Of a DNA stretch of 36,687 bases, positions 1-36,687 are shown one piece after another. A program made the translations under genes and the position numbers. The notes under the pieces are model-generated. The model did not search any database. It worked only from the letters and a program-made list of their open reading frames with translations, and was not told the DNA's origin. The DNA comes from Psammoneis japonica (Eukaryota), in the NCBI GenBank assembly GCA_008632985.1, contig QPGO01000374.1, positions 1 to 36,687 of the forward strand, in the 5' to 3' direction. The first letter of the stretch is position 1; every line of letters begins with the position of its first letter.

Positions 1-493
1 GGCTCTTGCTGGAAGCAACTCAAGACACCACAAATCAGTTGAGAGTCTGTTCCACAAACCACACAGCATTGTTGTTGCTGCCATTGCTGCTGCTGCTGCC
101 CATGCTTGTTGGGGAAGTGCACTGTGTTGCTCATGACAGTGGTTCATTGCCACAGAATCTTTCTGGAGTGGTGCATTTGCTCATGCCCAGTTTCCAGCAG
201 CCATGGCTGTTGCATCAGTGTCACTCATGCACCAACAGCAACAGAGCAACAACAGCAGAGCAACAGCAGCACCATGATGTCCAGCATCAACCTAGCTGTC
301 CATCTGTGAGCTGTCTGTGTGAGGAGCTCTTCACTTTTTGACAGAGCAGCGGTGCTGGAAACAGCTCAAGTTGATGCCTCTGTGTTGCTCCATGGCTCTG
401 CAAGCATTGACAACCACTGGGATGGCTTTTGCTGGCTGTTGTGCTGTGTGGGGCTGCTGTGCTTTGTGTGCACTGCTGTGCTCAGCTGCTTCC
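1..493. repeat. Degenerate dispersed repeat; uninterrupted paralogue of 18688-19113 + 26772-26893
   Basis: Colinear similarity (gcaactcaagacaccacaaa.cagttgagagtctgt ... cactttttgacagag|cagc...tgtgttgctcc) to the two flanks of the second copia; only one TpA seen in the segment. Confidence 0.85.
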
Positions 494-1245
494 TTTGAGC
501 AAGACAAGCTGGTGTGTTCAACTCAGATTGCTGCTGTGTTTGCCAAGAGCACTCTCACACAAAAATCAAGAGGTGTTTGTTTCTGGAGGCTTGTGTCACT
601 GATTGGTGACACAAGGTTCAAAAACTGAAAATGAAAAAAGTGATGAAAAGGTTTTTTGGCCAGCAGCCCCAAACATTTCTGGAGTCCGTGACTGAAATTT
701 TGGCCCCCAACACCTGCAGCAGGCACACATGCCCTGTGTGCTGCAGGCTTGTGCCAATGTGCAACCACAGTCCATCCATTGCATGCAAATGTCCATGTGC
801 TGTTGTTGTTCAAATAAAGAGGGCGGGTGGGGCTGCGCAGGCTTCAACAATTTGTCCTCGTTTCATGTGCATCAGATCAGTTGCGGGCCAGCTTCCCAAC
901 TCCAATGTGATTGCACATCGGCTGCGGGAACTTCAAGTTGTTGCACACCAAGGGTGGAGCTTTTCAACATTTTGATTTTTTTCCTGACACAGCAAACTCA
1001 CAATGATGCTCAACAACCAGCAGCAATGCTCTCAATGGGAGGGATGCAAACATTGTTTGACATTTTGCTTCATCCACAAACTTGTCACACAATGATGTCT
1101 GATGCACAGGCTGCTTTTGACACAAAAAAAAAGGCCAAGAAGACTTGCATTTGCAGCTGGGGCAATGAGCGCCACTTCACATTGTGCACTCAGCACACGT
1201 GCTTGGCACATCTGATGTCCGCAATGTGACCCATCTTGTGAAAGT

Positions 1246-1521
1246 TGACAGGATTTGAATGGGATTTAGGTGCGCGCGAAATGTCGCGCGCTGTTTAGTT
1301 TACCGCGCACAGTTTTGTGTGCTTTAGTTCCGCGCGTTCGCGCGCGATGTAGTTTGCTTTCGAGCCACAAGGCTCACAAGAATAACAACAGCAGCCCGAT
1401 TGTACCGACTTGCACGTCTTTCGGCTCCTGCAACGGTCTCTGAGCGGAGACTCATCTGCTGTTTAGACAGCAGCAAGGAGTCATTGTTTGAATTCTTGCC
1501 ACTTGCCTTCAATTTCTGTCA
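1246..1521 (+). repeat. 5' LTR of copia-1
   Basis: Aligns without gaps to 8080-8355; 23 mismatches by manual alignment, all transitions. Confidence 0.96.
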
Positions 1522-1532
1522 GATTGACAGTC
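1522..1532 (+). promoter_or_regulatory. Putative primer-binding site of copia-1 (GATTGACAGTC)
   Basis: Directly follows the 5' LTR; restoring one TG to TA gives GATTAACAGTC, the reverse complement of a tRNA-Asn(GTT) anticodon-arm sequence GACTGTTAATC. Confidence 0.45.
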
Positions 1533-2462
1533 TTGCTCATTGTCAACCCATTGAGCAACCGCCATCGTCGTCGTTGATTTTACCGACGACGCTATTTCAA
1601 TTCTGCGTGGACCTCCGCATATGTTCTACACACATCGGCAAGTCTGCGCGTGTTCAATGCCAGGGCATCGGCAGGAAGTTAACGTCACCGTCAAGTCTCC
1701 TTGCCGCTGGATGTCTGGATTGATTGTGCCATTTTCATCGCTGCAGACATGCTTCCAACGGTCACATCCAAGTCCATCTTTGATCATCATCCCTTGACAT
1801 GCACATTCAACGGTTGACGGTCAAGAACCCTGCATGTTCAAGTGTCTTCGTCGCTGAAGACACGTGTGCATGCATCCATGTCTTCACGGCCAAGAACTTG
1901 CACCCACTCTTTGGACTGCGGCTTTGCCATCACTCTGCAAGCACGCCGAGTCTATTGCACCTGATCTGCCCCGGACTGCTGGTGCTCTACAGTTCCACCA
2001 GGTCCACGAGGACGACTGTGAGAGCAAGCAGCCGTGATTGCAGCCTACGTTGGGGCGAGGGTGTTTTTTCCCGCGTTTGTTCGTTCGTCCACAGCGCCTG
2101 ACGCCTGCATCAACTGGCCAGCCTGATCGGGAAATCCAACCGACACAAAACAAGAACGGTTCGGGGGTCTTGTCCACCTCTGGTCAGCTCACCTGCAGGG
2201 GTTTACAACCCGCTACTCCGCTCGCAAGCAACCCAAAGTGCCGCCAGCTGCGGGTTCGGACGTGCCGGCACAACTCTGCGGACCGGACAGGAAGCTCAGC
2301 AACCAACTGCCAACGGGATGGCATGACCCGGTGGCTTCTGACTTGCAAGACAGTTCAAGTTTTCAAGTCAAGTTTCAAGTTTTCAAATCAAGTTTCAAGT
2401 TGATGCCAAGTCATTCCAAGTCCACCCTCCAACTCTAGTTCCGGCACCCAATCAGTTCCACC

Positions 2463-5400: not shown

Positions 5401-8132
5401 CGCTCATGTGTGTGTGCTTCACACTCAACCACACAGCGTCCCCACGTCTCCACTGGTGCACGCCCCTCGAGACTCTCACTGGCTCCACCCCGGACATCAG
5501 CCCATTGCTCCGCTTTCACTGGTGGGAACCCGTGTGCTTCCACCTCGATGACTCCGATTGGCCGTCCGAATCCCGTGAGTTGCGCGGACGCTTTGTTGGC
5601 ATTGCTGAGCACGTCGGCCACCAGATGACCTTCAAGATTCTCTCTGACGAGACTCAGAAGATTCTCTGCCGGTCCAACGTACGCTCCGCTGCCACCGATC
5701 CTGCCGTTCAAAACCTGCGCCTTGATCCTCCTGATGGGGAGCCACCTGAACCCATCATCAAATCTCGCCATGACGACAATCCCGTCAATTCCCCTGATGG
5801 GGAGATCAGGACACCCAAGATGCCAGTTTTCGATCCGCAGGACATCATTGGACGCACCTTCCTCATGCAGCCACAAGAGGACGGACAACGCCACAGAGCT
5901 CGCATCGTCAAGGCCATTGAAGATCATGAATGGAAAGTGAACGGCAATCCTGAGCTCACTAAATTCGTCTGCTCTGTCAACAACGACGAATGCGAGGAAG
6001 TCCTTGCTCACAACGACATCATGAATCACATCAAGCAAGAGGACGAAGACACTGCTGTTTGGAAATTTCGACGCATCGTGTCACACGAAGGACCCCTGAA
6101 GCCCCATGACCCAACCTGGAAAGGCTCAAGCTACAACATCATGCTTGAATGGGAAAGTGGGGAGATCACGTCCGAGCCTCTTGCCATCATCGCCAAGGAC
6201 AACCCTGTCACCTGCGCCATCCATGCGCGAGAGAACGGACTTCTCGACACTGATGGTTGGAAACGGTTCCGCACCATCGCGAGGCGTCAGAAGAAGCCAC
6301 TCCGCATGGCCAACCAAGCCAAGCTTCGCTCCTTCCGCACTGCACCTCGCTACAAGCACGGATGCGAAGTTCCCCGGAACTGCAAACACGCCATGTCCCT
6401 AGACGAACGCAACGGCAACCGCAAATGGGGAGACGCAACCAATCTCGAGATGGACCAACTCGATGATTACGAAGTCTTTCATGACTGCGGGCCCTCCGAG
6501 TCTTCCACTCCTCCTGCGGGACACAAGAGGATCCGAGTGCACCTGGTGCACGACGTGAAGCACGACGGTCGCCACAAGGCACGACTCGTAGCCGATGGAC
6601 ACCTCACGGACGTACCTGTCGACAGTGTGTGCTCTGGAGCAGTCTCCTTTTGTGGCCTTCGGCTGATGATTTTCCTGGCTGAACTCAACGAGTTGGAGAC
6701 ATGGGCCACCGACATTGGCAATGCCCACCTTGAGGCCACCACCAAGGATAAGCTGTACATTGTAGCTGGACCCGAATTTGGCAAACTCGAGGGCCACATT
6801 CTAGTCATCTACAAAGCCCTGTGTGGACTGCGCAGCTCCGGCCTCCGCTGGCACGAGCGCTTTGCCGACTGCCTGCGAGCTGAAGGTTTCTTCCCCTGTC
6901 GTGCGGAACCCGACATTTGGATGCGCAGGAACGGCGACCACTACGAACATGTTGCCGTTTATGTCGATGATCTCGCCATTGCCATGAAGGATCCTCAATC
7001 CTTCGTCGACACTCTCACGGAAAAGCACAAGTTCAAGCTCAAGGGCACGGGACCGATTGAGTTCCATCCAGGCTGCGACTTTTCCCGGGATCCTGACGGC
7101 ACCTTGTGCTTGTCTCCGCGCAAGTACATTGAACGCATGGTCGACAGTTGCGCACGACTGTTTGGGGAGAAACCTGCCACCAATGCCCTGTCACCCCTGG
7201 AGAAGGGTGACCACCCCGAACTGGACACATCCGAACTGCTGGGGCCCAATGGCGTTCAACAGTTCCAGTCTCTTGTTGGTTCCCTCCAATGGGCAGTGTC
7301 TCTTGGTCGCATTGACATCACCACAGCCGTCATGTCACTCTCTAGCTTCCGAGCTGCACCCCGTCAAGGCCACTTGGATCGTGCCAAACGCGTCTGTGGG
7401 TGCCTCTCCAAGATGCGACATGGCGCTCTCCGCGTTCGCACGGAAGAGCCCGACTGTTCGGATCTCCCTGCACCGGCCCATGAATGGATGCATTCCGTGT
7501 ACGGCGAAGCGGAGGAGATGATCCCGAAGGACGCTCCACCGCCCCTTGGCAAGTTCGTCACTGCCACCCACTGCGTCGATGCAAACCTGCATCATTGCAT
7601 GCTCACCGGACGCTCCGTCATGGGAATGCTCCACTTCCTCAACAAATTCCCGGCTGATTGGTTCTCTAAGAAGCAAGCCACTGTGGAGACTGCAACCCAC
7701 GGGTCTGAATTTGTTGCCGCCAGGACGTGTGTCGAGTGGATTGTTGACCTCCGCATTGCCCTGCGTCACCTCGGCGTCCCAGCCCGTGACATCAGTTGCA
7801 TGTTCGGTGACAACAAGTCGGTTGTGGACAGTGCCACCATCCCGCACTCCAAGTTACACAAGCGACACACCGCTCCATTGTTCCATCGTGTGCGTGAAGC
7901 GATTGCCTCTGGTTGCCTTGAGCTCCACTTCATTGAAGGCTCCCGCAACCCTGCTGACATTCTCAGCAAGCATTGGGGTTGCTCCCAAGTCTGGGACCTT
8001 CTCCGCCCCCTCATGTTTTGGAACTTCATTCCATCCGAAGTCGAATCTGTTTCTGTGACTCCTCAAGCAAACTGGGGAGTGACAGGATTTGAGTGGGATT
8101 TGGGTGCACGCGAAATGTCGCGCGCTGTTTAG
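2463..8132 (+). CDS. Copia gag-pol polyprotein, 1889 aa; open but hypermutated and probably non-functional
   Basis: Gag (DFKRGIKRD), protease LVDRGANGG (~4152), integrase D..D..E (DTVCADT, SDRAQ, AERR), RT (DVKHDGRHKARLVA, KALCGL, YVDD at 6960), RNase H (VDANL, GSEF, GDN, ADILSK). Many normally conserved Tyr read as Cys/His. Confidence 0.93.
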   Translation: MVLTRQQQTDGFEHVVGTVLAQGAGSPLRLALIQDGTDSHQELFTFMPSQIDSLEHDNSTGVIPLPRGYKNMSAALISLCIVKAHEGLDVANDSSLFTHGEFLACRLSPDCMSSVSVGSSPLAPPHVTNPTKARDPVRDFKRGIKRDPTAFTALKSDKQWHTWHTSLVAQARAQDVECILDSSYKPTSPEDKLLFAEQQKCMFAVFERILLTDKGKALIRENVGSSDAWTICRALSEHALASTRASVESSTLPTHLATARLGDGTWKGPTHGFILHWQDQLCKCEALIPASDHFSEGQKRVMLENAMHPVEELRAVKNQADQHRTQSGKSLTCDQHCGLLLSAAAQCDSTFQPKTTPRAPRRATHAHDVCSEEPSDDVFYDIDSDIDVLQAHAACTRGPSLAGDQWHHLPPDHQRIWDSLPDSSKAIILAHSRPPPRNPRASNCHECVEINLHDQRLGSDGDVNLSNTTPAASGDPAPNVDATPDNPILAHLTKRKPLPPGDLQCLLSPNQAPSASRSGPSAAPSTSSAPTDDTELNGRTCRRVNNHNVIHSASTHRSTRTGALVDRGANGGIAGDDVRVIARTSRQVDVQGIDDHQLVDIPIVTAGAVIETQRGPVVAILHQHACTGKGKTIHSCGQLEWHKHDVNDRSVKVPNGLQRVTTPDGYVIPIDIKGGLPCVAMRPHTDDEWDTLPHVILTGDDTWDPSVLDHSVTDDDQWHDVICDLQDDPTANPFDECGNCRHRVVVNQAIMSASLSPDHASALDDHLIPTEDVFCECHLHAIDPTDDDVLPPERNVQPKDPPYESLRPCFGFQPADTVRRTFDCTTQCARMPAGAHLRKAHKLPNPALNVHRRNEPIATDTVCADTPAVDSGCTSAQLFVGTESTVTDVYGTKTDKEFVNALEDQIRERGAPSKLISDRAQVEISNKVLGILRALFISSWQSEPHQQHQNFAERRCQTVKHMANTVMDRFGSPAHTWLLALMCVCFTLNHTASPRLHWCTPLETLTGSTPDISPLLRFHWWEPVCFHLDDSDWPSESRELRGRFVGIAEHVGHQMTFKILSDETQKILCRSNVRSAATDPAVQNLRLDPPDGEPPEPIIKSRHDDNPVNSPDGEIRTPKMPVFDPQDIIGRTFLMQPQEDGQRHRARIVKAIEDHEWKVNGNPELTKFVCSVNNDECEEVLAHNDIMNHIKQEDEDTAVWKFRRIVSHEGPLKPHDPTWKGSSYNIMLEWESGEITSEPLAIIAKDNPVTCAIHARENGLLDTDGWKRFRTIARRQKKPLRMANQAKLRSFRTAPRYKHGCEVPRNCKHAMSLDERNGNRKWGDATNLEMDQLDDYEVFHDCGPSESSTPPAGHKRIRVHLVHDVKHDGRHKARLVADGHLTDVPVDSVCSGAVSFCGLRLMIFLAELNELETWATDIGNAHLEATTKDKLYIVAGPEFGKLEGHILVIYKALCGLRSSGLRWHERFADCLRAEGFFPCRAEPDIWMRRNGDHYEHVAVYVDDLAIAMKDPQSFVDTLTEKHKFKLKGTGPIEFHPGCDFSRDPDGTLCLSPRKYIERMVDSCARLFGEKPATNALSPLEKGDHPELDTSELLGPNGVQQFQSLVGSLQWAVSLGRIDITTAVMSLSSFRAAPRQGHLDRAKRVCGCLSKMRHGALRVRTEEPDCSDLPAPAHEWMHSVYGEAEEMIPKDAPPPLGKFVTATHCVDANLHHCMLTGRSVMGMLHFLNKFPADWFSKKQATVETATHGSEFVAARTCVEWIVDLRIALRHLGVPARDISCMFGDNKSVVDSATIPHSKLHKRHTAPLFHRVREAIASGCLELHFIEGSRNPADILSKHWGCSQVWDLLRPLMFWNFIPSEVESVSVTPQANWGVTGFEWDLGAREMSRAV
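8074..8079 (+). promoter_or_regulatory. Polypurine tract of copia-1
   Basis: GGGGAG immediately upstream of the 3' LTR TG. Confidence 0.7.
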
Positions 8133-8355
8133 TTTGCCGCGCACAGTTTTGTGTGCTTCAGTTCCACGCATTCGCGCGCGATGTGGTTTGCTTTCGAGCC
8201 ACAAGGCTCACAAGAATGACAACAGCAGCCCGACCACACCGACTTGCATGTCTTTCAGCTCCTGTGACGGTCTCTGAGCAGAGACTCATCTGCCATTTAG
8301 ACAGCAGCAAGGAGTTGTTGTTTGAATTCTTGCCATTTGCCTTCAATTTCTGTCA
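8080..8355 (+). repeat. 3' LTR of copia-1
   Basis: Direct repeat of 1246-1521, followed by TSD AAAGT. Confidence 0.96.
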
Positions 8356-9020
8356 AAAGTCATGCAAGGAGACAAGAATGGTCCACTCCAACATTGTGTT
8401 GAGAATCACCCCCCAACCTTGACAGAGCAGATTGCAGGGAACAGCACAAAGTGCTGGCTCACCACTGGCCTCTTGAGCTCATGCGACGCAACCATGAAAA
8501 AGATGGCAAGGTGGTCACAAGCAAGTTCTGGGCAGAGATTGACAAAGTGGAAGCAGAATCACATGATTGCTCAATGGCCAAAGACTGCAACTGTTCTGAA
8601 GAGAATGCTGGTGCAAGAAGCACCAACCTGCCAGTGCACCGTGGATTTGGGGAAGACGACTCTTCACTGTGTCGGTGGTGTCAACAATGATGAGTTCAAA
8701 TGAAGACTGTTCACATGCCAAGGAATTGCAAACACATGCAGTCACAAAACAAACACAGCAGGAGAACAAAACAGCCTTCTTTTCCTTTTGTTGCTTGTGG
8801 GGGTTGTTCTGTTGAGATCTCAGTGGAAAAACTCCACACAGCTCCTCTGACAGCGACACTTTGAAACCAAAAGCAGGTTGGAGGAGTTCACCCAGGCTTT
8901 AGGTGCCACCTCTTAGAACAGGGCCTGTCTGTCCTGTTGTTTAAAATTACATTCATGGCTTTTACTTCATTCTCCAAGCATTCTCGCGAAAAAAAGAGCA
9001 TGCCGAGTCGACTGGTGTCT

Positions 9021-9103
9021 GTCTACCGTCTACCGTCTACCGTACCGGTGTGTACTGTGCGCAGCATCTACCGGTACCGGCATGCGTCGACCGTACTGTA
9101 CCG
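9021..9103. repeat. TACCG/GTAC-rich low-complexity tract upstream of the island gene
   Basis: (GTCTACC)x3 followed by TACCGG, CCGGTACCGG and GTACTGTACCG; ~250 bp upstream of ATG 9358. Confidence 0.6.
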
Positions 9104-9357
9104 CGCGCTTCGCAAATAGGCGCACGTCCGGAATATCCAGAAACTGCGTAGAATCCAGCGTAGAATCAGTATTAATACCAGGGATGTCAAAAAATGACGA
9201 AATTCCGGATTTGCTTCTTTTTTGGCATTTCTACTGGGGCCCCGGAACTGCTTCTACGTTGCGGGATAGCATTGCTCATGCACTTGCAAAAAAGCGTTGT
9301 TGCTGTTTGCTCGTTTTGTGTTACAAGTATTGTTGTTTTATATTACACAGAACTACA

Positions 9358-12300
9358 ATGGAGCAAGGGACTGACCACAACAATGTGGTCTCACAAACAG
9401 AAGCGGGGAAGCTCGTTGTCGAAACGAGCGGAGACGAAATCGATCAAACCAAACAAAAAGACGGACGCGACGAAATCCAGGCCGTGCTCGTTGTCGGGGA
9501 AGCCTCAAAGAAGGCTGTCGCACAAGTGAACAACATTATCAGAAATAAAGTCGAAGTACAAGCTGGGCAAATGACTGCGGGGAGTCAGCACAGGTCCGGT
9601 GTCAACAAATTGCAGTGTTTGTTTATTCGAGCCATCATGGTCGCGGCTGACAATGACGACCGTAATACTCTCCAGCTAATTGCTAGTTGGTGCAGCCAGC
9701 ATAACTTTCGCATCCCTTCCTTTCGGTACCCAGGACGCAAGACCGTGTCCTTTGCGCAAAATGAGCGACTCGACGAGTGGCTCGATCATATCGACAAAAA
9801 GGAGGTCCGCAAACCCGCTCCACCGTTTGAGCTTTGGATGCCTGTCGCTGTAGCCCAGTGTCGCATTCTTTTCTCCAATGGTGACCGCATCCCCCATATT
9901 GAGAGGGTTGCTTCAAAATTGTGCGCCTTATACTACATGCAGGCGCTCAAGTACCTGCAATCAACGGAAAACACGAACGACAAGAACAACTATGAAGTGC
10001 TCAAAGACCTCTTGAAACTGCCTCCCTCCGAGGTAGAATCGGCTATCCGTCTACCCTACGACAACCAGATTCGACCCGCTCCGAGTGCCGTTCAGTATTT
10101 GTCAACCACCGACGCGAAACCAGAAGCCAAGACCGTCCAAGTCGCCACTGACGGACTTAGGGGCGCTGCCAAGATGCCTCCCATTTTCGAAGACGACGAT
10201 TCGCCTCTACAAGGCACGGCCAAATTGCCCTCTCGACCGAAGAAGTCCCCCGGCACCGGTGCGCCGTCGATCAAAACTGTCTACAGCACGGACTCGCAAG
10301 ACTCGGACATCACCGATATCTCCACTCCCCCATCGAATAAGCGAGAATTGGAAGCCCGCTATCGTCTACTTGCAAAGACAAACCAGAAACTGCTGCGTCA
10401 ATGTCGCACGCGCGGAAGCCAACTCAAGCAATTGAGAAAATTGCCGTCAACCAGTCGGAAACCAACAAGAACCAATCTGCAACCATCCGGGAGAATGCGA
10501 CTACCGTCAAAGAAATGTACGCGGAGGTAAAGCGACTTGTCTCTGAGAACGACGATTTGAGGCGTCAACTTATGGACAACATTATGGCCATGGACCAACT
10601 CATGAAGGCGGGCCGCGACCGGACCGACGAGTACTTCCGTAATTTAGATCGACTGTTCCCGAAAGACTTTCTTTCAAAGCTTGTGAAGACGCCAGAGAAA
10701 CGTAAAGAGCTCAAGGACCTCGTGGACGTACTCACTTCGGAGGGTTTCAAGTATCCCCGCATTTTGGAGGGCGATCTTACGAAGATGCCGGAGGAAGCGC
10801 TGCGAAGCTGTTTGAACTACTCAAACCTGCGTCGGGCTTGTATGATAAGCGCTCTGGAATATTTCTGTTCCTAACGCACGGCGACAATCGCGACGAAGTC
10901 ACCGTCGACGACATTGACAACATGTGTTACGAGATTCTACCGAAGGTTGGATTCACTGTGCAGTTCGGTATTACCGTGAAAGACACGAGTAGCAACGAGT
11001 TTGTTCTCGGTCTCATTAGTAGGTCCCAAGACGAGATCCCCGATTTGTATGGATCTCTTGCTGTCGTCGCTGCTCGTACGCCGAACGCAGAGCATACGAC
11101 ATTGGAGAGCGACAGTTCCGAAGGCACTTCTACTTTGCCCATGACTCCACGCATTCTCCAAGATTTCGTCTACCCTGACTGCCGCGAGTCGACCGCAACC
11201 AAGACCACTGTGACGAAGTTCCGTCTCACCTCCAAGCATCAACAAGGATTGCACACGCCATTTGAAAACGATCCAGTCATGCTTGTCCTTGACAGTGTGG
11301 ACCTCGACGATGGCGGCAAGGCTCTTTGGGACCAAGCGACTCGAAAAAGCCAATGATGTTGACGTTTGTCAAAAAGCTTGACGGTGATTTTCCGTCCTTG
11401 AAGGGTGCCATTGAGGAAGAGCGAGTGAGCTTTTTTGGATTGAATGCGATCCAACTCTGCAACGACGACCATCAGAACGTCAAGGAACTGCTAGTTGCTG
11501 CTCGATCGAGCGGCTGCGAGTACAGTTTGGAAAATATCACCCACAAAGAATTGACTGAAGATGAATTGATCGAGCACTTTGCTGACCTCGTTGAGCCAAA
11601 GCGTTTCAAGACCTCCCGCCGGACATTGGAGCCGACGACTACCAGGATGACTATTCTCCGGACGTCACCTTTGCCAAAAAGGAGGATACGCCTGACAGCG
11701 ATGGCATGTGGAAGGTACAGCCGAATACTACGAAATGCAATTATTGCCTTGCCCCTAACGCTATCGACGCCGAGACCTGTGTGTCTTGCCAACAATCTTT
11801 TGTTCCAGCCCGCAGCCCGATCCTCCCACTCCCAAAGCGACCTCTTTGGAGGGGAGCTCAACGAATTCGGGTTTTCGTTTACGGGCACGGGGACGGTTCG
11901 GCTTCTACTCATTTGGCCAGTACGGGAAACGCTTTTACGGGCAGTGATTCGAGCGTCAATGCGCCGGGAGGATGGACGTTTGATCCAGCATCCTCGAATC
12001 CAAGCGAAAGCGCCAATGCGCCGGAAGGATGGACGTTTGATCCAAGCAAGAGCGCTCAGGAGCCGACAGAAACCACCACGGGAGGTGGTGCTGTCACGGA
12101 CGTGACCGTCAAGCCAAGCAAGAGCGTCGATCAGCCGACAGCAACCACCACGGGAGGTGGTGCCGTCACGGACTCGGCCGTCAAACCAAGCAAGAGCATT
12201 ACGGAGCCGACAGCAACCACCACGGGAGGTGGCACCGTCACGGAATCGGCCGTCAAACCAAGCAAGAGCGCCGAAGCCAACGGGAAGGCGCCGGGATCGT

Positions 12301-12746: not shown

Positions 12747-13159
12747 TTTTTACCCGCAATTGCTCCGATAGCCTTCCTACCACGAGCCTCTCTTAGCGTT
12801 TAGTCCTTGATTGAAATTGCCAAAGCTGTACAGCGTCAGTTCGTTTAGTTAGAAGTTTACTTGAACTACTTGTATTCCGGTAATCGAGGTAGCTCGAATT
12901 TTCCTCTAGTGAAATCGTTTACACAGATCAATCGGCGAAACATCGTCATTGAGCATTTTTCGTGCTTCGAGTGGCAACGTCTTGATGAACAGAGATTTTG
13001 GTGCCTATTCTTTGCAAATTCGTGCAGTCAAGCTACGTTCACTGCCAGTTCCTTCCCTTTTAAGCTGCCTCGGGCAATTTACTGGGCCCAAAATGCACTT
13101 CAAGTGCTGCTCCACCTTCGAATTAGCATTCAGGGATTACAAAATTGGTGTTAAGCAAA

Positions 13160-15556: not shown

Positions 15557-15676
15557 NNNNNNNNNNNNNNNNNNNNNNNNNNNNNNNNNNNNNNNNNNNN
15601 NNNNNNNNNNNNNNNNNNNNNNNNNNNNNNNNNNNNNNNNNNNNNNNNNNNNNNNNNNNNNNNNNNNNNNNNNNNN
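15557..15676. other. Assembly gap (120 N) preceded by (TG)n and poly-G
   Basis: Seen directly. Confidence 0.99.
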
Positions 15677-26436: not shown

Positions 26437-26579
26437 GTCCCAAAAGGGGACAAACCAAATGGGTTTGCCATGCAGGTGCAGCTTTTTCCCACCCCCAAAA
26501 TGAAATGCCACCCTGGAACAGGGCAGCATCAGGTTGCATTTGGTTGTTGATCTGGCCCGAGTGGAGCCAGCATCAGTTC

Positions 26580-26586
26580 AAGGGGA
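26580..26586 (+). promoter_or_regulatory. Polypurine tract of copia-2
   Basis: AAGGGGA one base before the 3' LTR. Confidence 0.65.
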
Positions 26587-26587
26587 T

Positions 26588-26771
26588 TGAGTGAATGCTG
26601 ACACACTGTCACAGATGTGGGCAGTTTGTGTGCCATTGGCGATTGGTCCACCATTGCTTGTTTGGTGGTCCCAGCAGCGTGACATCTCACAATTCTAGAA
26701 CCTGTTGATGCTGTTCAACACTCTGTCTTGTCTCACACCCAATTCTTGGCCATCATGGCAGCATTTGTTCA
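26588..26771 (+). repeat. 3' LTR of copia-2 (184 bp)
   Basis: Direct repeat of 19114-19299. Confidence 0.92.
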
Positions 26772-27327: not shown

Positions 27328-29587
27328 TTCTCCCGGGGACTTTCATGACTGGGTGCACTCTTAAACTTAACAAACTAAATGTCTGTAATGCCCAAACAGT
27401 CAAGGACATGTCGTTGTCATTGCTGTCATTACGACAACGCACCATCGTCATTTCGCCGATTTTTAGGATGATGCGTGCAGCGCGCACGAAGTTTCCAGCA
27501 CAAAAAAAAAATCAAAAAGTCGAATCGTCTTGTCATCTCTCACGCGGTTCTGCAATCACCTCATTAAGAATGAAACTCATTGACAATCAAAATTATTGTC
27601 ACATGCGTGCTGTCTCTGTCCACTGATCTTCAATGTTCTCACTTGTCAATTGTGCATTCTCAGAAGAGCTCATTCACAAGTGATTTGATTGTGAAACTTG
27701 TCAACAAACAAAATTGTTGCAAACGTGCTAACTCTGTCCAGTTGTCAATCATGCATTTTTGCAAACGTCAAGTCACAAATGATTTGACCATTTTTTACCT
27801 GCGTGCCCGATTCGTGGTCGGCGGATGCACATTTTTTCACACCACACCACAGACACCAACAACAGCCACAATGATGTTGACACGACCCATGTCGACAACG
27901 TCGCAGAGGCAAGTTCTTTCTTTGTTTTCTCATTTTACACCAATTGCATGCTTGCTGAAGATGTTGTTTGTGCTTTGTTGAAGCTTCACAGGTGGATTGA
28001 TTGTCTCGTGTGGTCGATTGTTGCATCTGTGATGTTGGTGTTTTTTTGCTGCATTTGCACCACCACAGTGCATCCGTTTGGGAGCCTTGTGCCTCATCCC
28101 ACTCTGCATCCTTTGGCACACCTGTCGTGCACATTGACATGGATTTGTGACGTGCTTGACATGTTTTTGAAGGTCTTGGTTGGCTTGTAATCACAGCATG
28201 TCGTTTTTCGGCAAACAACAATTTCTTGAGAAAGTGCGTGTCATGGGAACAAAATGATGCGATGGAGTCTTGGGGATGCTCACGACGTTGGCATTTGTCA
28301 GACAGCCTTCTCACAGTCCAAAAAAGGCAATCCTGTGAGCACAATGTAATTGTTTGAGCATTGGACTCGTTTTGATGAAACTTGCACACCTCACGAGCCT
28401 TTTTTTGTGCCTCTCATCCATGCATGTGGGTGTCTGGTCCTTTTTGACCCTTTCTTCCTGCTCTGCAATCGTGTCATCTTTATGATCTGAGGCACAATGT
28501 CTCCCACATTGTTTTGGGTGATCTTGTTGGTGCAACTACCAGACTGGGTTTTGCACTGGGCAAAACAGAGAAGTGGAGGCTTGTGTGGCCGGGCTCCTTG
28601 CCTGCTCTTGGATGCGTGGATGCAACGATCTGCTGGTGGCATTTGAGGCCATGAAATTTGCTGGGGCAACTCAGAACTGCCTCGGAAAGGTGACCCAGTG
28701 AGTGCAATGTGACATGTGGCCTCAATGGATTGTTGTTGTGTGTGTTGTTCTCCTCACATTTTCATTTTGCCTGTCATGTTTTCAGCATGATTGTCTGGGA
28801 CTGTGGGTGCTGAAAGTGGCCTTTCCATGCCAACACTCCACATGACACAAGTCCTTTGATGACACTTGTTCATTTGGGGAATCAGAGCTTGGAGCGTTTG
28901 GTGTCTATTCGGGTCTAGAGAGGTGCGAGTGTTGGATGAAATGTGGACCAGGTTGTGAATGGAATTTGGCTGACGTGCTGTTTTTTCTTGATGGTGCAGT
29001 TGGTCAGTGCATGGGTTTGTGAGCATGGATGGACTCTTCATTGAGGGCCACTGTTCTGGAATGCTTTGCTCTGGAGCATGACTTTGCGCAAATGGCAAGA
29101 GATCCATCATCATTTGTGATTTTCGACTCATCGCGGCGTTTTTGGCGTTGTCCGACGTTAACCCTCATGTCCAAAACCGTCTGTTTGCCGCCTGATTGTG
29201 CTGTGTGCGGGACCACAATCGCTCTCGTAGGACAATGCCACATTTCTCGTAGAAGATCTTTCCGTTGCAACGCTTTTCGAATGCAAAAACTCCATCCGAC
29301 AACCAACCCTTTAGATGGAGTCTAAAAACGATGTCATTCCAAAACACTCCATCCATTGTGATGGAACATTTTCCATGAGATGTTCAGGAGTGCATTGTTG
29401 GATGAACATTCCAGTGCAGCGAGCTGGTTTTTTTTCTCCGGGCATTTCAAAACGCAAGTGTTTTTGACCCGCCGTTTCGTGACAATGCGTTGAAGCGGTC
29501 GCCGATGTTGATGTTCAGATCAACACCGATGCCAACAATTCAAGTCGAGTCTGCCTGGCAGCAAATCAGAAACGCACAAGTGGTGCA

Positions 29588-32500
29588 ATGAGTGCATCAT
29601 TCGATTTTGACTGTTCCTTGGAATCAGATTGGGTGCAGTGCTGCAAGCAAAAGGAGGACGCTGGTTTTTCTGAAGAGGACCTGCACTTGTTTGTTGATTC
29701 CACGCAGGACAAGTGTTCATCACAATCAACACAGAACCGTCCAAACTGGAGAACAGATGATGATTTTGGGAAAGGTGTTGCAATCACATTTGGCCAGGCC
29801 CGCGCCAAGGTGTGGAAAGCAGCACAAGAGGAGACAAAAGGATGCCAAGAGAGGGTGCAGCAGAAGATGCGGAAGAGCTTCCATGACATGGACCCCATTG
29901 AAGACATTCTGTTGCTCTGCATGGGGAAATCAAGTCCAATGACACAGTTGCTGCAATCAGAACTCTCCATGGATTTCGACGAGGTTGCAGCTTTCCTTGC
30001 TGCGTGTTGCACGCAAAAAGCATGCCGTCTTTCAGCAGAAGAACTGTGCGACGATGGTGACGAGAGACTTGACAATTCTGACTTGATGGATGAAGAAAAG
30101 TGCAAAGCTGTTTAGAAAATCATTGGCAAATCTCCTTCATCAATGGCAGTGCGGAAAAAGACACCTTTTTGGGAGAAGTTCCAAGAGCGGTTCAATGAAG
30201 TGTGTCAGAGCATGAATGTGAGTGACAACATGTCGTTGACAGTGTCGCCAGACAATGACAAGAAAAAGGCTGCTGCAAACAATGGTGCTGACATGCAAGG
30301 ATTAAAGCAAGTCATGCACACTGACAAGCGAAAAGGGACAGTCGGCCACACAGCAGTGTCTCCAGCTGCGCTTCTTGCTTGCAGTGTTTGTTGGGAGCAA
30401 GAGGGGGATTCGACGTACGAGTGCCATGTGAAGCTGGTGAAAACAATGTTTGGAAACAAACCGGTGCTTGACAGGGTTGCATTTTGTTCTGATCATGGAT
30501 GCTGGATTCTCAAGCCACTGGTTTGCTTGTTGGATGATGGAGCCGAAGTGCACGGCACAGTGTGGCGTCAACATTGGTGTCAATTTACATGCGATCAAGA
30601 GTTGAAAGCGGGTGATCCTCGAACTCTAGTCGACAAGGTGGGGCCAAAAACTCTGTGCACTGGGACCGGCAAGGTTGCAGAACGTGACACATGTGGCAAT
30701 GCATGTCGAAACGGCACTGGCGGAGTGGCGCTGACAATGTCATCGATTGTTCATGGCGCGCATTGGGATTGTGCACCCATTGAAGAAAAACGAGTCTCCA
30801 ATCGAATCCCATTGGTGTGCAGTGCAGAGTGGCGTCAGGCTCTAACTTTCCGTCCATTTCTCGTAAACAAGAATGTTGCTGTCGAGGAGGAAATGCTGTT
30901 GGAATTGAGCAAGTTAGCCACAGATCATGTCACTGAGAATCAAGGACATGTGGAGTGGTTCCATGGCAGGGAGTTTGCGGTTGCCTCATCAGGCTCTGAC
31001 ACACAAGTTTTGATGCAGCTAAAACTGGACAAAGACAGAGAGCAGTGACGACCCCACTGGGTGACTTTGGAACAGTGTCTTGACACGTCGTGTGGCACAG
31101 ACGAGGAGCCCAACGAAGAGGTTGATGCAAACGCACAAGGCAGCGCTGTCACAGCAGGCAGCAGTGGTGCCGAGTCGGCTGACACCAGCTCTGACAATGC
31201 TTGTTTGGACAACGTTGTCGGGGATTTGGCAGAGCTGACAAAAGACTTAGATTCAGACACAGACTCAGCCAAACTTGAAAAGGACCTTGAGTCAGACATG
31301 GAAGAGGATGAAAGGCAATCAGTCATTGAAAGACACGTGTCGGAAGCTCGCGACGCAAAAACGAAACGGGAAGAGAAGGCAAAGGAGCTGATTGATGATG
31401 CGGCTGACACCACTGAACGGAACAATGAGATTCGTGTGAAATTGATGTCCGATTTGAAGGCCGGTTTGCACAAAGAGCTGCTCACGGAGATTGTGAAATA
31501 CATGGGTTGGAAGGTTTGTAAGTCACGTGATGCAAACATGAAAAATGCCATCAAATGGCTGGAGGCCACACCCGCCTCTAGGCCGCACATTGTGCTTAAC
31601 AAGAATCAGCTGAAGGTGAGGACAAGAACGCTTTGTTTGGATGTCACAATTGCAGTCCATTCTCCAATGCTGCGTTCCATCGTACCCGCACATGCCTTCA
31701 AGGAAAAGCACAGAGAATGCATCAACAGCACCACACCATCAAGTGTGAGCAAGAACAACGACTTCATGTCGATTTTAAGTGGCGAAACTGCTGCACCCGC
31801 GGCGGAGAGAGAAAGCAGCCCCAATCCCGCCACGCCTCTTGAAGCCGCGACACACACGAACTGTCTTCCTCCACTGAAAGGCGAGGCAGCTGAGTTGTGT
31901 CAATTGGGTCACAAGATGGAGAAAAAGCATGGAGAGGATCTTCTTGCAGTTGCCAAAGATGGCGTGATGCTGGAGAATGGTGCAGTCTTGGCAGTCGAGT
32001 GTCTCTTCAGAGCCGGGTTGCTGCAGAAACGAGGGCGACCATGTCAAAAAGACTCTCCAGATTTGATTGCTGCAGCAACTCTTGACGGTGAACGAGTCAT
32101 TGCTGTTGCAGAAATGAAGGCTCGTTGCAAATCGCTGACCGCGGCAAAAGAAAGGAAGCGACTGTCGGAGGTTGGTGAGTTCTCATTTGTCGATTGCAAT
32201 TCCCCCGACTTGCGCAAATGCACATTGAAACGATCGGAAGCGGTTCAGGCAAGTGTTGGTTGATGCAGCGCATTCCTCACACAAACACTCGCCAGTTCAC
32301 CCCAATTTATTCTGCAACACAATGTGGCAGTGCACCCATCATGCCAGCACGGTCGGAGTGAACTGTGTCGTGCTCGCAACAGGTGACCGCCTTGGTCCAA
32401 CAGGAGTCATGGTTGTCAAGTGTGACAAGTCATTTCTTGCCAACTGCCAGCAATGTGTAGATGACATGCACGAATCATCTTTGAAGTGGGCGTGCGAGGG

Positions 32501-33723
32501 GAAGGACAAGGACCGCAACGACGACTGGAACAGAGACAAGGTGGACATTCCCATCAATGAGATGAAGGTTTGCAGCAAAGAAAGCACAAGCAAAGCTGGA
32601 TTTTGAGACATTCATGAAATCACATTGCTTCTGGAAAGAACTCACAAAACCCAAGAACTTGCCTCTTCCAGCGTGTGACAGAATCACTCCAATGCATGAC
32701 GGCTGTTGGAATGTTGCCAAATGCAGATCCGACGTCAAGACCCAATGTTGTCAAGCACAAGCCGCTTGCATTCCTGATGATGCTGCAGGTGCAAAGTCAT
32801 TTGACCGCGTGCAAATGACAGTGTTGTCTGACGTGCACAAGGGAGCTCAGAACTTCCTTGCAAGCAACGATCCAGACAAGTGCGATTCTCTAGAGAAGTG
32901 TCGCGACCGCGCCCGTCGTGCTTTGACATTCCGCAAACTGCCACTTCGATCATCAAGGATTTTTGAGAGGCTGTCAAAACAAGAACAAACCGTGAGCAGA
33001 TCAAGAGCACCTGCAGCAATGCCACCAGCGACTCCTGCAAAGCCTTCAGAAGGGAGGCGGTGGCTCCGAGGCTCTGTTGAAAAAGAGGAAACTGCCACAA
33101 TTGCAAGAGAGACTCTCAAGTCACCAAAGCGTGGCATGCTTCATGCTCTCACAAGCAATCCCAAGACTCTTGACCAAGATTTTGCTTCCAAGCACTTCAA
33201 GAGCTGCCAAGGTGTGCCTGTTCCTCGAGTGTGTCCAAACACTGGCAGCGAGTCTGGATCCGGGGCCGTGGGACGTTGCGTTCTTTGCAAAAAAAAGACC
33301 AACTTCTGCTGCTCAGACTGCAGGAACTGGTTTTGTCATTGCAGGTCTTGCCCCAGCAACACAGGACCTCCCCATTTTGAAGACGCCGCGACGTGTCAAG
33401 ACGGAAAGCAGCAAATCACGGGTGAGTGCACGTGCTTCATGCAGCGTCATCCAACAATTGCACCTGAGTTGGAAAAAAGACACAGAACAGAACAAGTGGC
33501 AAAACAAGGGAACAATGCACAAGAACAATGGACTTTTCAACTGTGCTGGACATGGAAAGTCATTCGACCACTCGACTTGCCGATTCTCTCAATGGCGTGG
33601 CGGAGCTGCCAGCGAGTCAAACATTTCCTTCAAAACTTGTCTTTGCAAGGTGCTTCTGGCACTTCGTCCAGAACAGAAACAAGCGACACCTTTCCCGATC
33701 ATCTTGCTGACACACTTTGTTGA
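29588..33723 (+). pseudogene. Decayed piggyBac-like DDD transposase with embedded YqaJ/lambda-exonuclease (PD-(D/E)XK) domain and C-terminal Cys-rich domain
   Basis: Same-frame ORFs 29588/30143/31061 separated by single stops. Motifs: PDNDK, FCSDHGC (DRGY-like), TENQ...EWF..R....SS, KDSPD...EMK, Q..HH, WN..K..SD, and CVLC-x4-TNFCCSDC..WFCH. Probable intron 32249-32330; frameshift ~32570. The true C-terminus may end near 33500. Confidence 0.7.
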
Positions 33724-34071
33724 AGCACTGTCATGCTTGCACGATGCCGTCAATTTCGGCCACTGCAAACAATGTCCGAGGGTGTGGAAGCAACAACAAC
33801 AAGGGAAAACGTGCTGTCAGTTGAAGTTTCAAAAAAAAGGCTTTGTCGTTGCAAGTCTCCATTGATGCCAACTTGCCACAACCTTTGCGAAGTGCCGCAA
33901 GAGAGATTGCTGCTGCGACACCAACTCAGGCTTGAGCGCGCGCCTTCGCAAACGATGCAACCTCCATGGTTGGTTGCTGTTTTTTCTCGTGCTAAAAGCA
34001 CGGGAAGTTTTGATGGCAGACAGACTCAAAGAAAAAGTCTGCGCAGATTTTCAGCATGTTCTACGAGGGCC

Positions 34072-34643
34072 TCTGTTGTGCTGCATCGTTTGGTCGTGGC
34101 GCCAGAACCCCGGGTGCGGCACCCGGTTTTTTTTTTTAATTTTTTTAATGCGGAAATTATGCATTCGACCAAGAAATTGATTTTTTCATACGGAGCACTA
34201 ACATTTTCGGCTACTTTGTTCGGCATTACGTGCCAACACTCTTTCGATGTAACATAACGCCACCCTCTCACACTCTGTATGGTTCTGAAAGATTTCTCAA
34301 TAGAAAACCAACGGCAAAGTGTGCACTCTACAAGAGATACAGCTGTCACCAGAAACAGGGCGTGGCGCCCGGGTTTTTCATTTTTGGATATATCAACCTC
34401 ATTTTGATCTTCAATTATTTAAGTAAGAGCACATATATGAGGCCCGAAATGATTGTAAACAATCGTGTTGACATCTTATCGATTCAACGGACGCATGTGT
34501 CATTTGTCAACGGCTATTGTTCCGTATTAAAAACAGTAATTTCTTGGTCGAATGCATAATTTCCTTGTTAAAAAAATTTAAAAAAAAAACGGGTGCCGCA
34601 CCCGGGGTTCTGGCGCCACGACTAAACGATGCGGCACAATAGA
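34072..34643. repeat. ~106-bp inverted repeat (34072-34178 / 34538-34643) around a ~360-bp AT-rich spacer
   Basis: gtcgtggcgccagaaccccgggtgcggcacccg...ggaaattatgcattcgaccaagaaatt occurs in both orientations. Confidence 0.93.
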
Positions 34644-34687
34644 AATCTATTGTGCCGCATGCGGCACCATGCGCACATGCGGGTTAA
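34629..34687 (+). mobile_element. Putative piggyBac-type right terminus (hairpin followed by GGG|TTAA)
   Basis: Hairpin atgcggcacaatag-aaat-ctattgtgccgcat (34629-34660), then GGG 34681-34683 and TTAA 34684-34687, at the edge of a compositional island. No matching left end found. Confidence 0.5.
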
Positions 34688-35330
34688 AAAAGACTCATGG
34701 CATTTTGCTGTTCTTTAGAGGTGTGATTGCACAGCTCTCAACATTCCAGTTTTCTTTGAGGGTGGGATTGTGTCACATGTCATTCGGGAAGCGTTGTCAC
34801 AGCGCTCTTGCTTGCGGGTTCATGCCTTGTCCTGACAGAGGCTGGAAAGAATGTCTCGCCTTCTTCCCTCTTGCCATCACTGCAAATGAAGACAATGGCC
34901 AGAGTTCATCAGCCACACATCCTCAGTTCCGAGGGGTTCACTCTGGTGGCAAGTTTGATGACATGACTTGCTGGTGTCTCCAGCTGGAGCAACAAACTTG
35001 CTGTGGTGCATGATGCACAAGCCAGCGCCGCTTGAGAAACCAAAATGGATCATGTGGCGGTGCTCCAGATCATCATCATCACCATCAATGCACACTGGTT
35101 TAAGTTGCTGCCTGCATGACATGCACCCCAAATGCACTCAGCCTGCACTTGTTGAGTGGGTTCTTGACCCAAGTGTGGTGTCTTTGCAACCTTGATTTGG
35201 GGAGCTGCAAGCCATGTCTTGGGCAGCAGCAGCAGCCCCTTGCATGATTCCTCCACACAAGAAGATGCCCAGCTGCACAAGGTGTGAAAGCACCGTGCCC
35301 ACAGATGTGGCAAAAGAGGTTTGCAGCTGT

Positions 35331-35610
35331 CTTGGGATGGCATTGGAGGACTCCAGTGGATCCCAGAGGATGCAACAACAACAATGGCTGGGGAGCAAAG
35401 GTTTTGTCTTGTGTCCATGCAGCCCTTTGTCTCTCTGACATGACTGGGTTTCTTGGCCCAGCCACCCTGCCTGCAAAAACAAGAAAGCCATGTGTGTGAC
35501 AGCGCAAGTGCTCTGTTGTCTTGGGGCGGCCTTGGATGACTTGATCCGGCCCCAGAGAATGCAGCACCAACCATGGCTGGGAAGCAAAGGCCTTGTCTTG
35601 TGTCGGTGTG
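35331..35610. repeat. Diverged ~189-bp-period duplication preceding the satellite
   Basis: cttggg...cccagag.atgca.ca.caa.catggctggg.agcaaagg.ttgtcttgtgtc at ~35331 and ~35520. Confidence 0.7.
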
Positions 35611-35690
35611 GCACTTGGACCATTCAACTCCCTGCCACGGCTCTTCAAGGTTTGCCTTGGGTCTGCCAAAGACAGTCAATGATGTTTCAA

Positions 35691-36687
35691 CAACAGTTGT
35701 TGGGTGGGTGGGTGCACTCATGGTGTTGTTTCCATTCAGAAGTTGGGGCTCAAGTCTCACCCTGACATTTTGTGAAGTGACATGGGCTGCAGCTGAGGCA
35801 GGTTGGCTTTGAAACTCCCTGCCATGGCACTCAAAGTGTTGCCTGGGGTCCACAGAAGACATTCAACGGTGTTTGACAACAGTTGTTTGGTGTGTTGGCA
35901 CATTCATGATGTTGTTTCACTTTTGATTTTGGGGCTCAAGTCTCGCCCTGACATGTGAAGTGACATGTGGGCCACAGCTGAGCCAGGGTGGCTTTGCCAC
36001 TCCCTGCCATTGCTCTCAAAGTGTCACCTGGGGTCCACTGCATGCATTCAATGGTGTTTGACAACAGTTGTTTGGTGTGTTGGTGTGTTCATGATGTTGT
36101 TTCACTTCAGAAATTGGGGCTCAAGTCTCGCCCTGATGTTGTGAGGTGACACAGAGCCAGAGTTGCACCACGGCGGCTTTGAAGCTCCTCTGGCCATGGC
36201 TCTGAAAGTGTTGCCTGGGGTCCACTGCAGACATTCAATGGTGTTTGACAACAGTTGTTGGGTGGGTGGGTGCACACATGGTGCTGTTTCATTTCAGAAG
36301 TTGGGAATCAAGTCTCACCCTGACATTTTGTGAAGTGACATGGGTTGCAGCTGAGGCAGGTTGGCTTTGAAACTCCCTGCCATGGCACTCAAAGTGTTGC
36401 CTGGGGTCCAAAAAAGACATTCAATGGTGTTTGACAACAGCATTTGGTGCGCTGGCACATTCATGATGTTGTTTCACTTTTGATTTTGGGGCTCAAGTCT
36501 CACCCTGACATTTGTGAAGTGACATGGGCCACAGCTGAGCCAGGGTGGCTTTGCCACTTCCTGCCATTGCTCTTGAAGTGTCACCTGGGATCCACCACAT
36601 GCATTCGATGGTGTTTGACAACAGTTGTTGGGTGGGTGGGTGCACACATGGTGCTGTTTCACTTCAGAAGTTGGGAATCAAGTCTCA
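35691..36687. repeat. ~186-bp tandem repeat array, at least 5.4 copies, continuing past the window end
   Basis: caacag anchor at 35691, 35877, 36062, 36249, 36435 and 36619. Confidence 0.95.

Follow-up and report, generated by a model that had tools for sequence, protein, structure and literature searches.

Repeat-induced point mutation (RIP) in ascomycete fungi changes C:G pairs to T:A, mainly at CpA, and thereby creates TpA, lowers GC content and makes stop codons. To our knowledge, all self-mutating systems described so far (RIP, RIP-like CpG hypermutation and APOBEC) deaminate cytosine. Conversion of adenine to inosine (A-to-I editing) by ADAR and by fungal ADAT2/3 acts on RNA and on one strand. 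Here we analyze a 36,687-nt stretch of the genome of Psammoneis japonica (assembly GCA_008632985.1, contig QPGO01000374.1, positions 1..36687 of the forward strand; this whole stretch is hereafter called the window), in which TpA has given way to TpG and CpA in a Ty1/Copia long terminal repeat (LTR) retrotransposon, a satellite and other DNA outside genes. A first-pass annotation of the window had proposed that repeats undergo a TpA to TpG/CpA hypermutation opposite in direction to RIP, and that this is a candidate genome-defence system. Methylation-driven CpG decay includes a RIP-like hypermutation at TCG in basidiomycetes (PMC3318451), and PMC9998398 reports that diatoms carry a RID-like DNMT4 of unknown function, which is a lead for targeting but not for a chemistry that acts on A:T pairs.

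The window shares with ascomycete RIP its dense, context-ruled transitions in repeated or silent DNA, its sharp gene edges, the degradation of whole transposable element (TE) families and, presumably, the association of mutated with methylated DNA. It differs in that A:T pairs at TpA become G:C, which removes TpA, raises GC content and produces no in-frame stops. The opposite direction is also evident from the RIP indices, which are inverted in the depleted DNA (TpA/ApT 0.081; (CpA+TpG)/(ApC+GpT) 1.80), and from the polarised change of TA to TG or CA described below. RIP acts premeiotically and depends on a RID-type DNMT. It also needs duplicated sequence and spares single-copy DNA, whereas here an interval of near-single-copy depth (13285-14152) is depleted, although it possibly consists of old repeats of <90% identity. 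The window also bears the marks of CpG decay, with an observed/expected (O/E) ratio for CG of 0.12-0.36 in its oldest parts, CG to TG/CA changes between the LTRs of one element and a predicted role for 5-methylcytosine (5mC), but such decay explains the CpG part only and cannot remove TpA.

Results

TpA loss is balanced by TpG and CpA

The TpA depletion signature is real and extreme, far beyond chance. Window-wide O/E ratios, with the expectation derived from base composition, are 0.152 for TA and 0.63 for CG, and 1.65 for TG and 1.54 for CA, in agreement with the excess of TG and CA noted in the first-pass annotation, whose TpA counts were also exact: 2 in 1-1245 (80.8 expected), 0 in 35103-36687 (91.3 expected) and 6 in 9301-9360 (6.3 expected). 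When the window is divided into 250-base bins, most bins hold 0-2 TA, and only 1251-1750, 8751-13250 and 34001-34750 are TA-normal. In the old depleted DNA (24,359 bases in total), TA O/E is 0.07 and CG O/E is 0.41; the deficits of 1456 TA and 873 CG (2329 together) are nearly matched by an excess of 2302 TG+CA, and in the Copia element deficits of 255 TA and 71 CG stand against an excess of 345 TG+CA. This balance supports the turning of TA and CG into TG and CA. Other dinucleotides made of A and T are not depleted in the same DNA (AA O/E 1.20, AT 0.86). The claim that TpA is almost absent from repeat-derived DNA needs qualification: the depletion is real, but it extends beyond sequence that counts as repeat-derived at ≥90% identity, and CpG has been lost as well in the older parts.

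Across both strands of a wider depleted set (31.2 kb), TAA and TAG together occur 219 times and TGA 1498 times. Since the change of TA to TG or CA makes no new in-frame stop (TAA becomes TGA or CAA; TAG becomes TGG or CAG), open reading frames (ORFs) stay open despite the damage; 40 ORFs of at least 150 aa are listed in the window, and long spurious ORFs occupy all frames. Outside the Copia body and the gene island, Tyr makes up 0-1.5% of 57 of the 58 stop-to-stop ORFs of at least 120 aa, and the one exception (7.4%) lies inside a spared element resembling a miniature inverted-repeat transposable element (MITE). Together with the Copia polyprotein, these ORFs bear out the earlier remark that TE reading frames are Tyr-poor and Cys/His-rich.

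Relatives polarise the change in the Copia element

The ORF at 2463-8132 and the LTR pair around it form a Ty1/Copia LTR retrotransposon, as a single LTR-flanked polyprotein contains RVT_2. The polyprotein has 1497 relatives at E≤0.001, nearly all of them metagenomic, and the atlas cluster closest to it, in which a single member has a known phylum, bears the label Bacillariophyta. Tyr accounts for 0.79% of its residues, compared with at least 3.03% in all 120 relatives listed (range 3.0-4.5%). We polarised this difference with 39 relatives. Of the 39 columns in which at least 80% of them carry Tyr, the window retains Tyr in 10 and has Cys in 14, His in 12 and Phe in 3, whereas retention within each of the other residue classes is 76-100%. 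At a threshold of 50%, which yields 60 Tyr columns, the window has Cys in 22, His in 18, Tyr in 13, Phe in 5, and Leu and Trp in one each, with TGY and CAY as the codons for Cys and His.

The same polarity was found at the DNA level in a 1.8-kb alignment with 36 metagenome relatives, in which conserved sites were defined from the 34 ordinary ones. The window keeps only 7 of 25 conserved TA sites, the others having become CA (9), TG (7) or TT (2), whereas its retention of all other dinucleotides pooled (0.81) falls inside the range of the relatives (0.72-0.87). When each relative was treated in the same way, 34 of the 36 kept 0.78-1.00 of conserved TA. Conserved GC, GG and CC dinucleotides are kept at 0.88-1.00 in the window element and conserved CG at 22 of 24 sites. 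The window Copia is thus ordinary except at TA, indicating that the change is polarised and not an inherited composition. Directional change of TpA to TpG/CpA, as first proposed, is accordingly upheld by 39 protein relatives, 34 DNA relatives and the LTR pair. The refuting condition named in the first-pass annotation, namely family consensus sequences free of TpA with Cys and His at these sites, fails: Tyr and TA are found there in relatives, and further copies from the sample have TA at sites where the window has CA, for example at 6440.

In a side observation on the reverse transcriptase/RNase H region (6132-7906), relatives agree on TG at 63 sites, 16 of which are CG in the window element. 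The GC content of the element is 57%, compared with ~40-53% in relatives, and it is unusually CpG-rich in view of its CpG-decaying surroundings.

A second, degenerate Copia-type element has an ORF (22135-23376) with 2105 relatives at E≤0.001; RVT_2 was found in 2 of 4 relatives scanned, and the element has a weak rve match. The ORF contains no Tyr in 414 aa, whereas Tyr makes up 0.75-3.8% of 29 relatives. The column test is weak for this element, as no column is at least 60% Tyr in the 29 relatives; the seven columns at or above 30% have Cys (2), His, Trp, Phe, Val and Ser (1 each) in the window.

TpA is lost in place after insertion

Comparison of the two LTRs of the Copia element (276 aligned bases) identified six sites that are TA in the 5' LTR and TG or CA in the 3' LTR, and none in the reverse direction. 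The remaining differences comprise four TG-versus-CA sites, six CG to TG/CA sites and three other transitions. As LTRs are identical at insertion, these differences arose after insertion, in place. We estimate from the LTR counts that the rate at TpA exceeds background by two orders of magnitude and the rate at CpG several-fold. The 5' LTR and ~180 bases downstream of it (1246-1700) keep TA and CpG, whereas most TA is gone from the 3' LTR; the 5' LTR could have been spared because an active promoter is protected, or the element could have been joined from two copies.

Other copies of the element were examined in sequencing runs X1-X3, which come from one sample. Over 2001-15000, 8466 pieces of X1 contigs aligned at ≥90% identity, 1899 of them at ≥99%, 2806 at 95-99% and 3761 at 90-95%. 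Over the Copia element, word depth in X1 sums to 28,000-216,000, compared with ~58 over genes; this is not equal to copy number, but the element is present in very many copies in the sample. Nearly all differences from the window are transitions (A>G 58, T>C 84, C>T 74, G>A 45, compared with 41 transversions). Among the 40 rows examined of a variant table of 317, other copies have TA where the window has CA at 6440 (~90% of depth), 7479 (80%) and 6357 (78%), and adjacent double changes flip TG and CA at 2404/5, 2412/3, 6357/8, 7319/20, 7401/2 and 7479/80. Three of the flip pairs sit in Tyr codons (1299, 1647 and 1673), with T or C at the first base and G or A at the second; for example, where the window reads CAT, position 7479 is T in 80% of X1 depth and 7480 is G in 62%. 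Ancestral Tyr codons thus vary among copies between Cys, His and Tyr, which is the expected trace of independent hits in each copy.

Repeats within the window show the same kinds of difference. Four dispersed repeat pairs (832 aligned bases) differ by 18 TG-versus-CA double differences, 9 TA-versus-TG/CA differences, 16 CG-versus-TG/CA differences, 15 other transitions and 11 transversions. The LTRs of the second Copia-type element have seven TG-versus-CA double differences, and satellite monomers differ by TG/CA toggles, with 38 double differences over 10 monomer pairs.

Both strands are affected and the flanking bases matter

The Cys (22) and His (18) replacements of Tyr are interleaved along the Copia polyprotein, with 24 runs compared with 20.8 expected (z = 1.04). 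This bears out the proposed action on both strands, and the order of Cys and His contains no strand-coherent runs of the kind that a processive single-strand deaminase would leave. The process acts on DNA and is not borne by transcripts, because the satellite has 0 TA in 1062 bases and the LTRs of one element differ.

Among TA contexts, TAT/ATA is the most completely lost, to 0.04 of its density in relatives, followed by TAA (0.17), TAC (0.31) and TAG (0.32). At the 160 TA sites that survive in depleted DNA, T occurs as the 3' neighbor at only 0.34 of its base frequency, and TTAA and CTAG are the commonest surviving contexts. Such flank dependence suggests an enzyme.

Depletion fits a domain better than a repeat

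The first-pass annotation regarded the loss of TpA as restricted to repeats, a description that the window does not support, on two counts. First, summed depth over 12851-15000 is 63-158 (~58 for single-copy genes), with 81-96 over 13285-14152 and 140-158 over 14153-15000, and TA O/E in the latter two intervals is nevertheless 0.03-0.15; a single X1 contig of depth 62.9 spans 13336-14352 (1020 bases, 3 other letters), compared with a depth of 57.7 for the gene island. The depleted interval 13285-14152 may consist of old repeats that have diverged below 90% identity. Second, the MITE-like element and the 5' LTR of Copia are TA-normal amid depleted DNA. A domain in which CpG is lost as well fits better as the unit. 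On the left side of the gene island there is no TA in 8298-8900 and dense TA from 8900, on the right side TA is dense up to 13152 and sparse beyond, and the CpG edges lie within ~200 bases of the TA edges at ~8900 and ~13150. TA is abundant in the non-coding gene flanks inside these edges, at 17 in 9001-9250 and 15 in 12751-13000.

Within the window the ratios form an age series. TA and CG O/E are 0.47-0.64 and 1.2-1.3 in spared DNA, 0.16 and 0.87 in the young Copia, 0.07-0.13 and 0.7 in 27-34 kb, 0.06-0.08 and 0.28-0.36 in 13-27 kb, and 0-0.02 and 0.12-0.19 in the satellite and flanks. Silent DNA therefore ages from a state in which TA and CG are normal, through one in which TA is gone and CG normal, to one in which both are gone. 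The internal part of Copia (1522-8079; TG+CA 1.43) has lost TA while its CG remains at 0.87, indicating that the TpA process is separate from CpG decay and faster. The notion that repeats of several classes are hit holds for two Copia-type LTR elements, the satellite and unclassified DNA, but the DNA transposon that it had included is unconfirmed, as 29483-34254 has neither a Pfam match nor, among the near-length proteins searched, a homologue.

The signature recurs in sequencing runs and metagenomes

The window has 1-base deletions relative to contigs of the sequencing runs at 10794, 11325, 11600, 11797, 11839, 11896, 12955, 13546, 14104 and 14297, indicating a long-read assembly in which indel errors persist. 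These errors also account for the broken frames in the gene island, whose gene or genes are split by the deletions into at least five overlapping ORFs. Contigs of X1 and X2 reproduce the window sequence, including the TpA-poor DNA of single-copy depth. TpA O/E in 79 related metagenome loci is 0.31-0.97, compared with 0.15 for the window element. The two lowest loci, L053 (1-2759; 0.31) and L029 (1-2561; 0.33), are different records with ~65-68% nucleotide identity to the window; Tyr has become Cys or His in 45% and 31% of cases, respectively, compared with 0-13% in the other 77 loci, and both keep 0.50 of conserved TA. This weaker signature suggests that the trait exists in other environmental lineages or copies.

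Other features of the window

The features of the window are collected in Table 1. The first of them contains one member of a repeat pair (6-304 and 18693-18996) that is 81% identical. The LTRs of the second Copia-type element (19111-19299 and 26585-26771) are 86.8% identical. At 29483-34254, two long frames (715 and 563 codons, with one TGA each) have an acidic stretch and a Cys-rich C-terminal part; no Pfam match was obtained, and ORF 32566-33720 had no homologue in a search restricted to proteins of near length, and the region is either an unclassified mobile element or one that is heavily mutated. The MITE-like element of ~570 bases is bounded by an inverted repeat of ~130 bases (34072-34200/34515-34643, 89% identical) and is either a very recent insertion or a member of a class that escapes the TpA process. 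In the gene island, ORF 9340-10527 had no homologue among the proteins of near length that were searched. The gene or genes at 9340-12746 (+) contain a 72-base coding tandem repeat (3.2 copies, 12042-12274), and the region is single-copy. A look-up of RNA data sets covering 8001-14000 listed none. An assembly gap of 120 N (15557-15676) lies inside a TpA-poor stretch. Scans of the window with Rfam (gathering scores) and ARAGORN gave 0 matches and 0 tRNAs, respectively. With Pfam at 0.001, 13 of 14 window ORFs had no match and the sole match was RVT_2 of Copia; a laxer scan of 18 ORFs added only the weak rve match and chance-level matches.

Table 1. Features of the 36,687-nt window, with O/E ratios of TA, CG and TG+CA where available.
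Feature	Position	Strand	Remarks
Old TpA-free, CpG-poor repeat DNA	1..1245		TA O/E 0.02, CG 0.15, TG+CA 2.02
5' LTR of Copia, spared	1246..1521	+	91.7% identical to 8080-8355; 8 TA, 22 CG; TA O/E 0.47
Copia polyprotein ORF P0001, intact, 1889 aa	2463..8132	+	RVT_2 match 1e-22; most Tyr codons now Cys/His
3' LTR of the same Copia	8080..8355	+	2 TA, 16 CG; mutated after insertion
TpA-free spacer up to the left edge of the gene island	8356..8900		0 TA, CG O/E 0.19
Gene island, spared; orphan gene(s) and, to either side, TA-rich flanks	8900..13150	+	O/E over 9001-13000: TA 0.52, CG 1.21, TG+CA 1.00
TpA-poor, CpG-poor DNA, low-copy up to 15000	13250..19110		TA O/E 0.06, CG 0.28, TG+CA 1.86
Second, degenerate Copia-type LTR element	19111..26771	+	TA O/E 0.08, CG 0.36, TG+CA 1.75
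Unclassified element, long ORFs	29483..34000	+	TA O/E 0.07, CG 0.68 (half-decayed), TG+CA 1.58; ORF Tyr 0-0.6%
MITE-like insertion, spared or very recent	34072..34643		31 TA; TA O/E 0.64, CG 1.32
Satellite, period ~185 bases, 5.7 copies	35626..36687		TRF array; 0 TA; CG O/E 0.12, TG+CA 1.94

Discussion

The direction of the change, its specificity for TpA, its use of both strands, its timing after insertion, its domain boundaries and its recurrence in copies were all observed here, and as a whole they are best explained by a targeted, in-place mutation of TpA in silenced domains, for which we tentatively favor an adenine deaminase as the cause. By this account, the A:T pair of 5'-TpA-3' would be converted to G:C on either strand, in place and at hundreds of times the background rate, such that TA gives TG or CA. 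The activity would operate inside silenced chromatin domains (transposons, satellite and low-copy junk), stopping sharply at gene islands, and the same domains would lose CpG to TpG/CpA more slowly, presumably via deamination of 5mC. Adenine would be deaminated enzymatically in a T-A context to hypoxanthine, which is read as G; the candidate enzyme is a deaminase, either TadA/ADAT-like or derived from a toxin, that would be recruited to methylated DNA or heterochromatin. The natural substrate of TadA is U-A-C-G, and TadA-derived editors as well as fungal ADAT editing prefer a 5' U or T. Deamination of adenine is favored because it is fully mutagenic and can saturate its sites while the background stays near 1%. 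As a reversal of RIP, the process would erase TpA from every silenced sequence and drive silent DNA to CA/TG richness, and its effect would be genome defence, TE proteins being wrecked by Tyr to Cys/His replacement without an in-frame stop ever being created. The fuller claim, that a naturally occurring DNA adenine deaminase guided by chromatin, or an enzyme that modifies the T:A step to the same effect, serves as such a defence in a diatom-like protist and in more than one environmental lineage, is possible but doubtful.

Several points weigh against this account. We know of no natural DNA adenine deaminase that acts in genome defence, and no enzyme, modified base or trigger was seen from the window data, in which deaminase genes were not searched for; the "genome-defence system" of the first-pass annotation is therefore still conjecture. 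The order of flanking contexts, beyond TAT being the most affected, differs between two baselines, and the sequence data are compatible with attack on either base of the pair, A or T, as both models predict the same flank dependence. CpG is nearly intact in Copia though its 3' LTR has lost 6 CG, so that the relation between TA and CG loss is not simple. Given the very high summed depth of the element and the 1-base indel errors of the window, its two LTRs might derive from different copies through recombination or chimeric assembly. Finally, the analysis is based on a single 36.7-kb window and 40 of 317 variant rows, and the single sample behind X1-X3 may be the window's own source.

The main rival is oxidation of thymine, in which a TET/JBP-type dioxygenase would convert T at TpA in silenced repeats to 5-hydroxymethyluracil (5hmU) or 5-formyluracil, and mispairing with G or mis-repair would yield T-to-C changes. 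All of the sequence evidence for deamination fits this explanation equally, and the decay of both TA and CG in the same domains could conceivably be the work of a single family of enzymes whose substrates are the 5-methylpyrimidines T and 5mC. We nonetheless consider it unlikely, if less so than the other alternatives. 5hmU forms a normal pair with A, 5-formyluracil mispairs weakly, and near-saturation (93-100% loss) at ~1% background divergence would be hard to reach. The closest Copia cluster points to diatoms and not to dinoflagellates, the protists of the stramenopile-alveolate-rhizarian (SAR) group in which an A:T-pair base is likewise modified preferentially in repeats. Sections of PMC11572971 and PMC11071213 describe dinoflagellate 5hmU, the product of a TET/JBP enzyme, as enriched in repeats, where it silences TEs, and mention old reports of a TA/TC preference, but PMC11071213 found 5hmU to have no sequence preference in another dinoflagellate. 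These sections treat 5hmU as an epigenetic mark and describe no mutational consequence, whereas the present process is known from sequence alone; no report of TpA loss in dinoflagellates was found in our literature search.

A process without any targeting, namely a genome-wide neutral bias against TpA combined with CpG decay, with TA kept around genes by selection or transcription-coupled repair, would account for the finding that the low-copy interval 13285-14152 (depth 81-96, compared with ~58 for genes) is as depleted as high-copy elements, and for the rather low TA O/E of the gene island itself (0.52). It is improbable, since the edges are sharp, TA is abundant in the non-coding DNA that flanks the genes, and a TA-normal MITE-like element and 5' LTR lie within depleted DNA. 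In addition, the 3' LTR lost ~6-10 TA with only 3 other changes per 276 bases, a contrast that is too great unless genes are equally exposed and repaired.

Biased repair or gene conversion, in which an over-zealous mismatch glycosylase would resolve T:G or A:C mismatches, produced by replication errors or in heteroduplexes of repeat copies, to G:C at TpA in the manner of very short patch (VSP) repair, is less probable again. The very high depth of the element provides many ectopic partners, the direction from AT to GC is the expected one and a precedent exists in E. coli, where VSP repair depletes CTAG. As here, a TA-containing word is lost in that case through a T-to-C bias. VSP repair in enterobacteria is slow, however, and removes a single tetranucleotide genome-wide, whereas CTAG is among the best-surviving TA contexts in the window. 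Moreover, AA and AT are undepleted, low-copy DNA has been hit as well, the supply of mismatches would limit the rate, and a given site has become TG in some copies and CA in others, so that the copies diverge instead of being homogenised.

Editing of transposon transcripts by an ADAR/ADAT-type A-to-I enzyme, fixed by reverse transcription, is very improbable and is largely refuted by strand symmetry. The elements best studied here are retrotransposons, and the net A-to-G change with a 5' U/T preference is typical of RNA deaminases, but edited genomic RNA would give only sense A-to-G (Cys 22), and sense T-to-C (His 18) is about as frequent; differences between the LTRs of one element are also unexpected, since editing would be inherited identically by both, as is the effect on low-copy DNA and the satellite. 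ADAR and fungal editing favor a 3' G, yet TAG is one of the contexts hit least.

Least probable of all is an artefact caused by modified bases in silent DNA, with A read as G, C read as T, and TG or CA chosen for the consensus: the 1-base deletions of the window (10794, 11325, 11600 and others) do betray error-prone reads, and misreading limited to methylated domains would mimic the domain pattern, but X1 and X2 contigs reproduce the sequence, the depth of TpA-poor single-copy DNA (62.9, compared with 57.7 in the island) lacks the halving expected of strand-specific misreads, L053 and L029 have the same signature in metagenomes, and misreading of CG on both strands would create TA, which is absent. 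Three further candidates were rejected, namely mutagenesis at WA of the DNA polymerase eta type, as AA is not depleted; ultraviolet (UV) T-A photoproducts, which give A-to-T, as only 2 of 25 conserved TA became TT; and an APOBEC-type cytosine deaminase, which makes G-to-A or C-to-T changes on one strand, as GC, GG and CC are kept and change is concentrated at TA.

Our literature search, which did not extend to subscription journals, supplements and possibly the genome paper of the organism, found no description of a loss of TpA to TpG/CpA in repeats, and the portions of PMC2806351 (on diatom retrotransposons) covered by a term search contain no mention of deamination, dinucleotides or hypermutation. 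The signature is thus undescribed as far as we could find.

Conversion of A:T to G:C at TpA needs an activity other than cytosine deamination, and if the proposed process is real, eukaryotes would have a second, chemically different means of self-mutation in silent DNA. There is wide interest in natural DNA adenine deaminases, because base editors could be obtained only by evolving an enzyme that acts on RNA. The question is directly testable in culture. If true, the process would also explain the CA/TG-rich, stop-codon-poor junk in repeat-rich protist genomes, DNA of a kind that misleads gene finders, and would provide a built-in clock for the age of silent DNA, in which TA is lost first and CG later.

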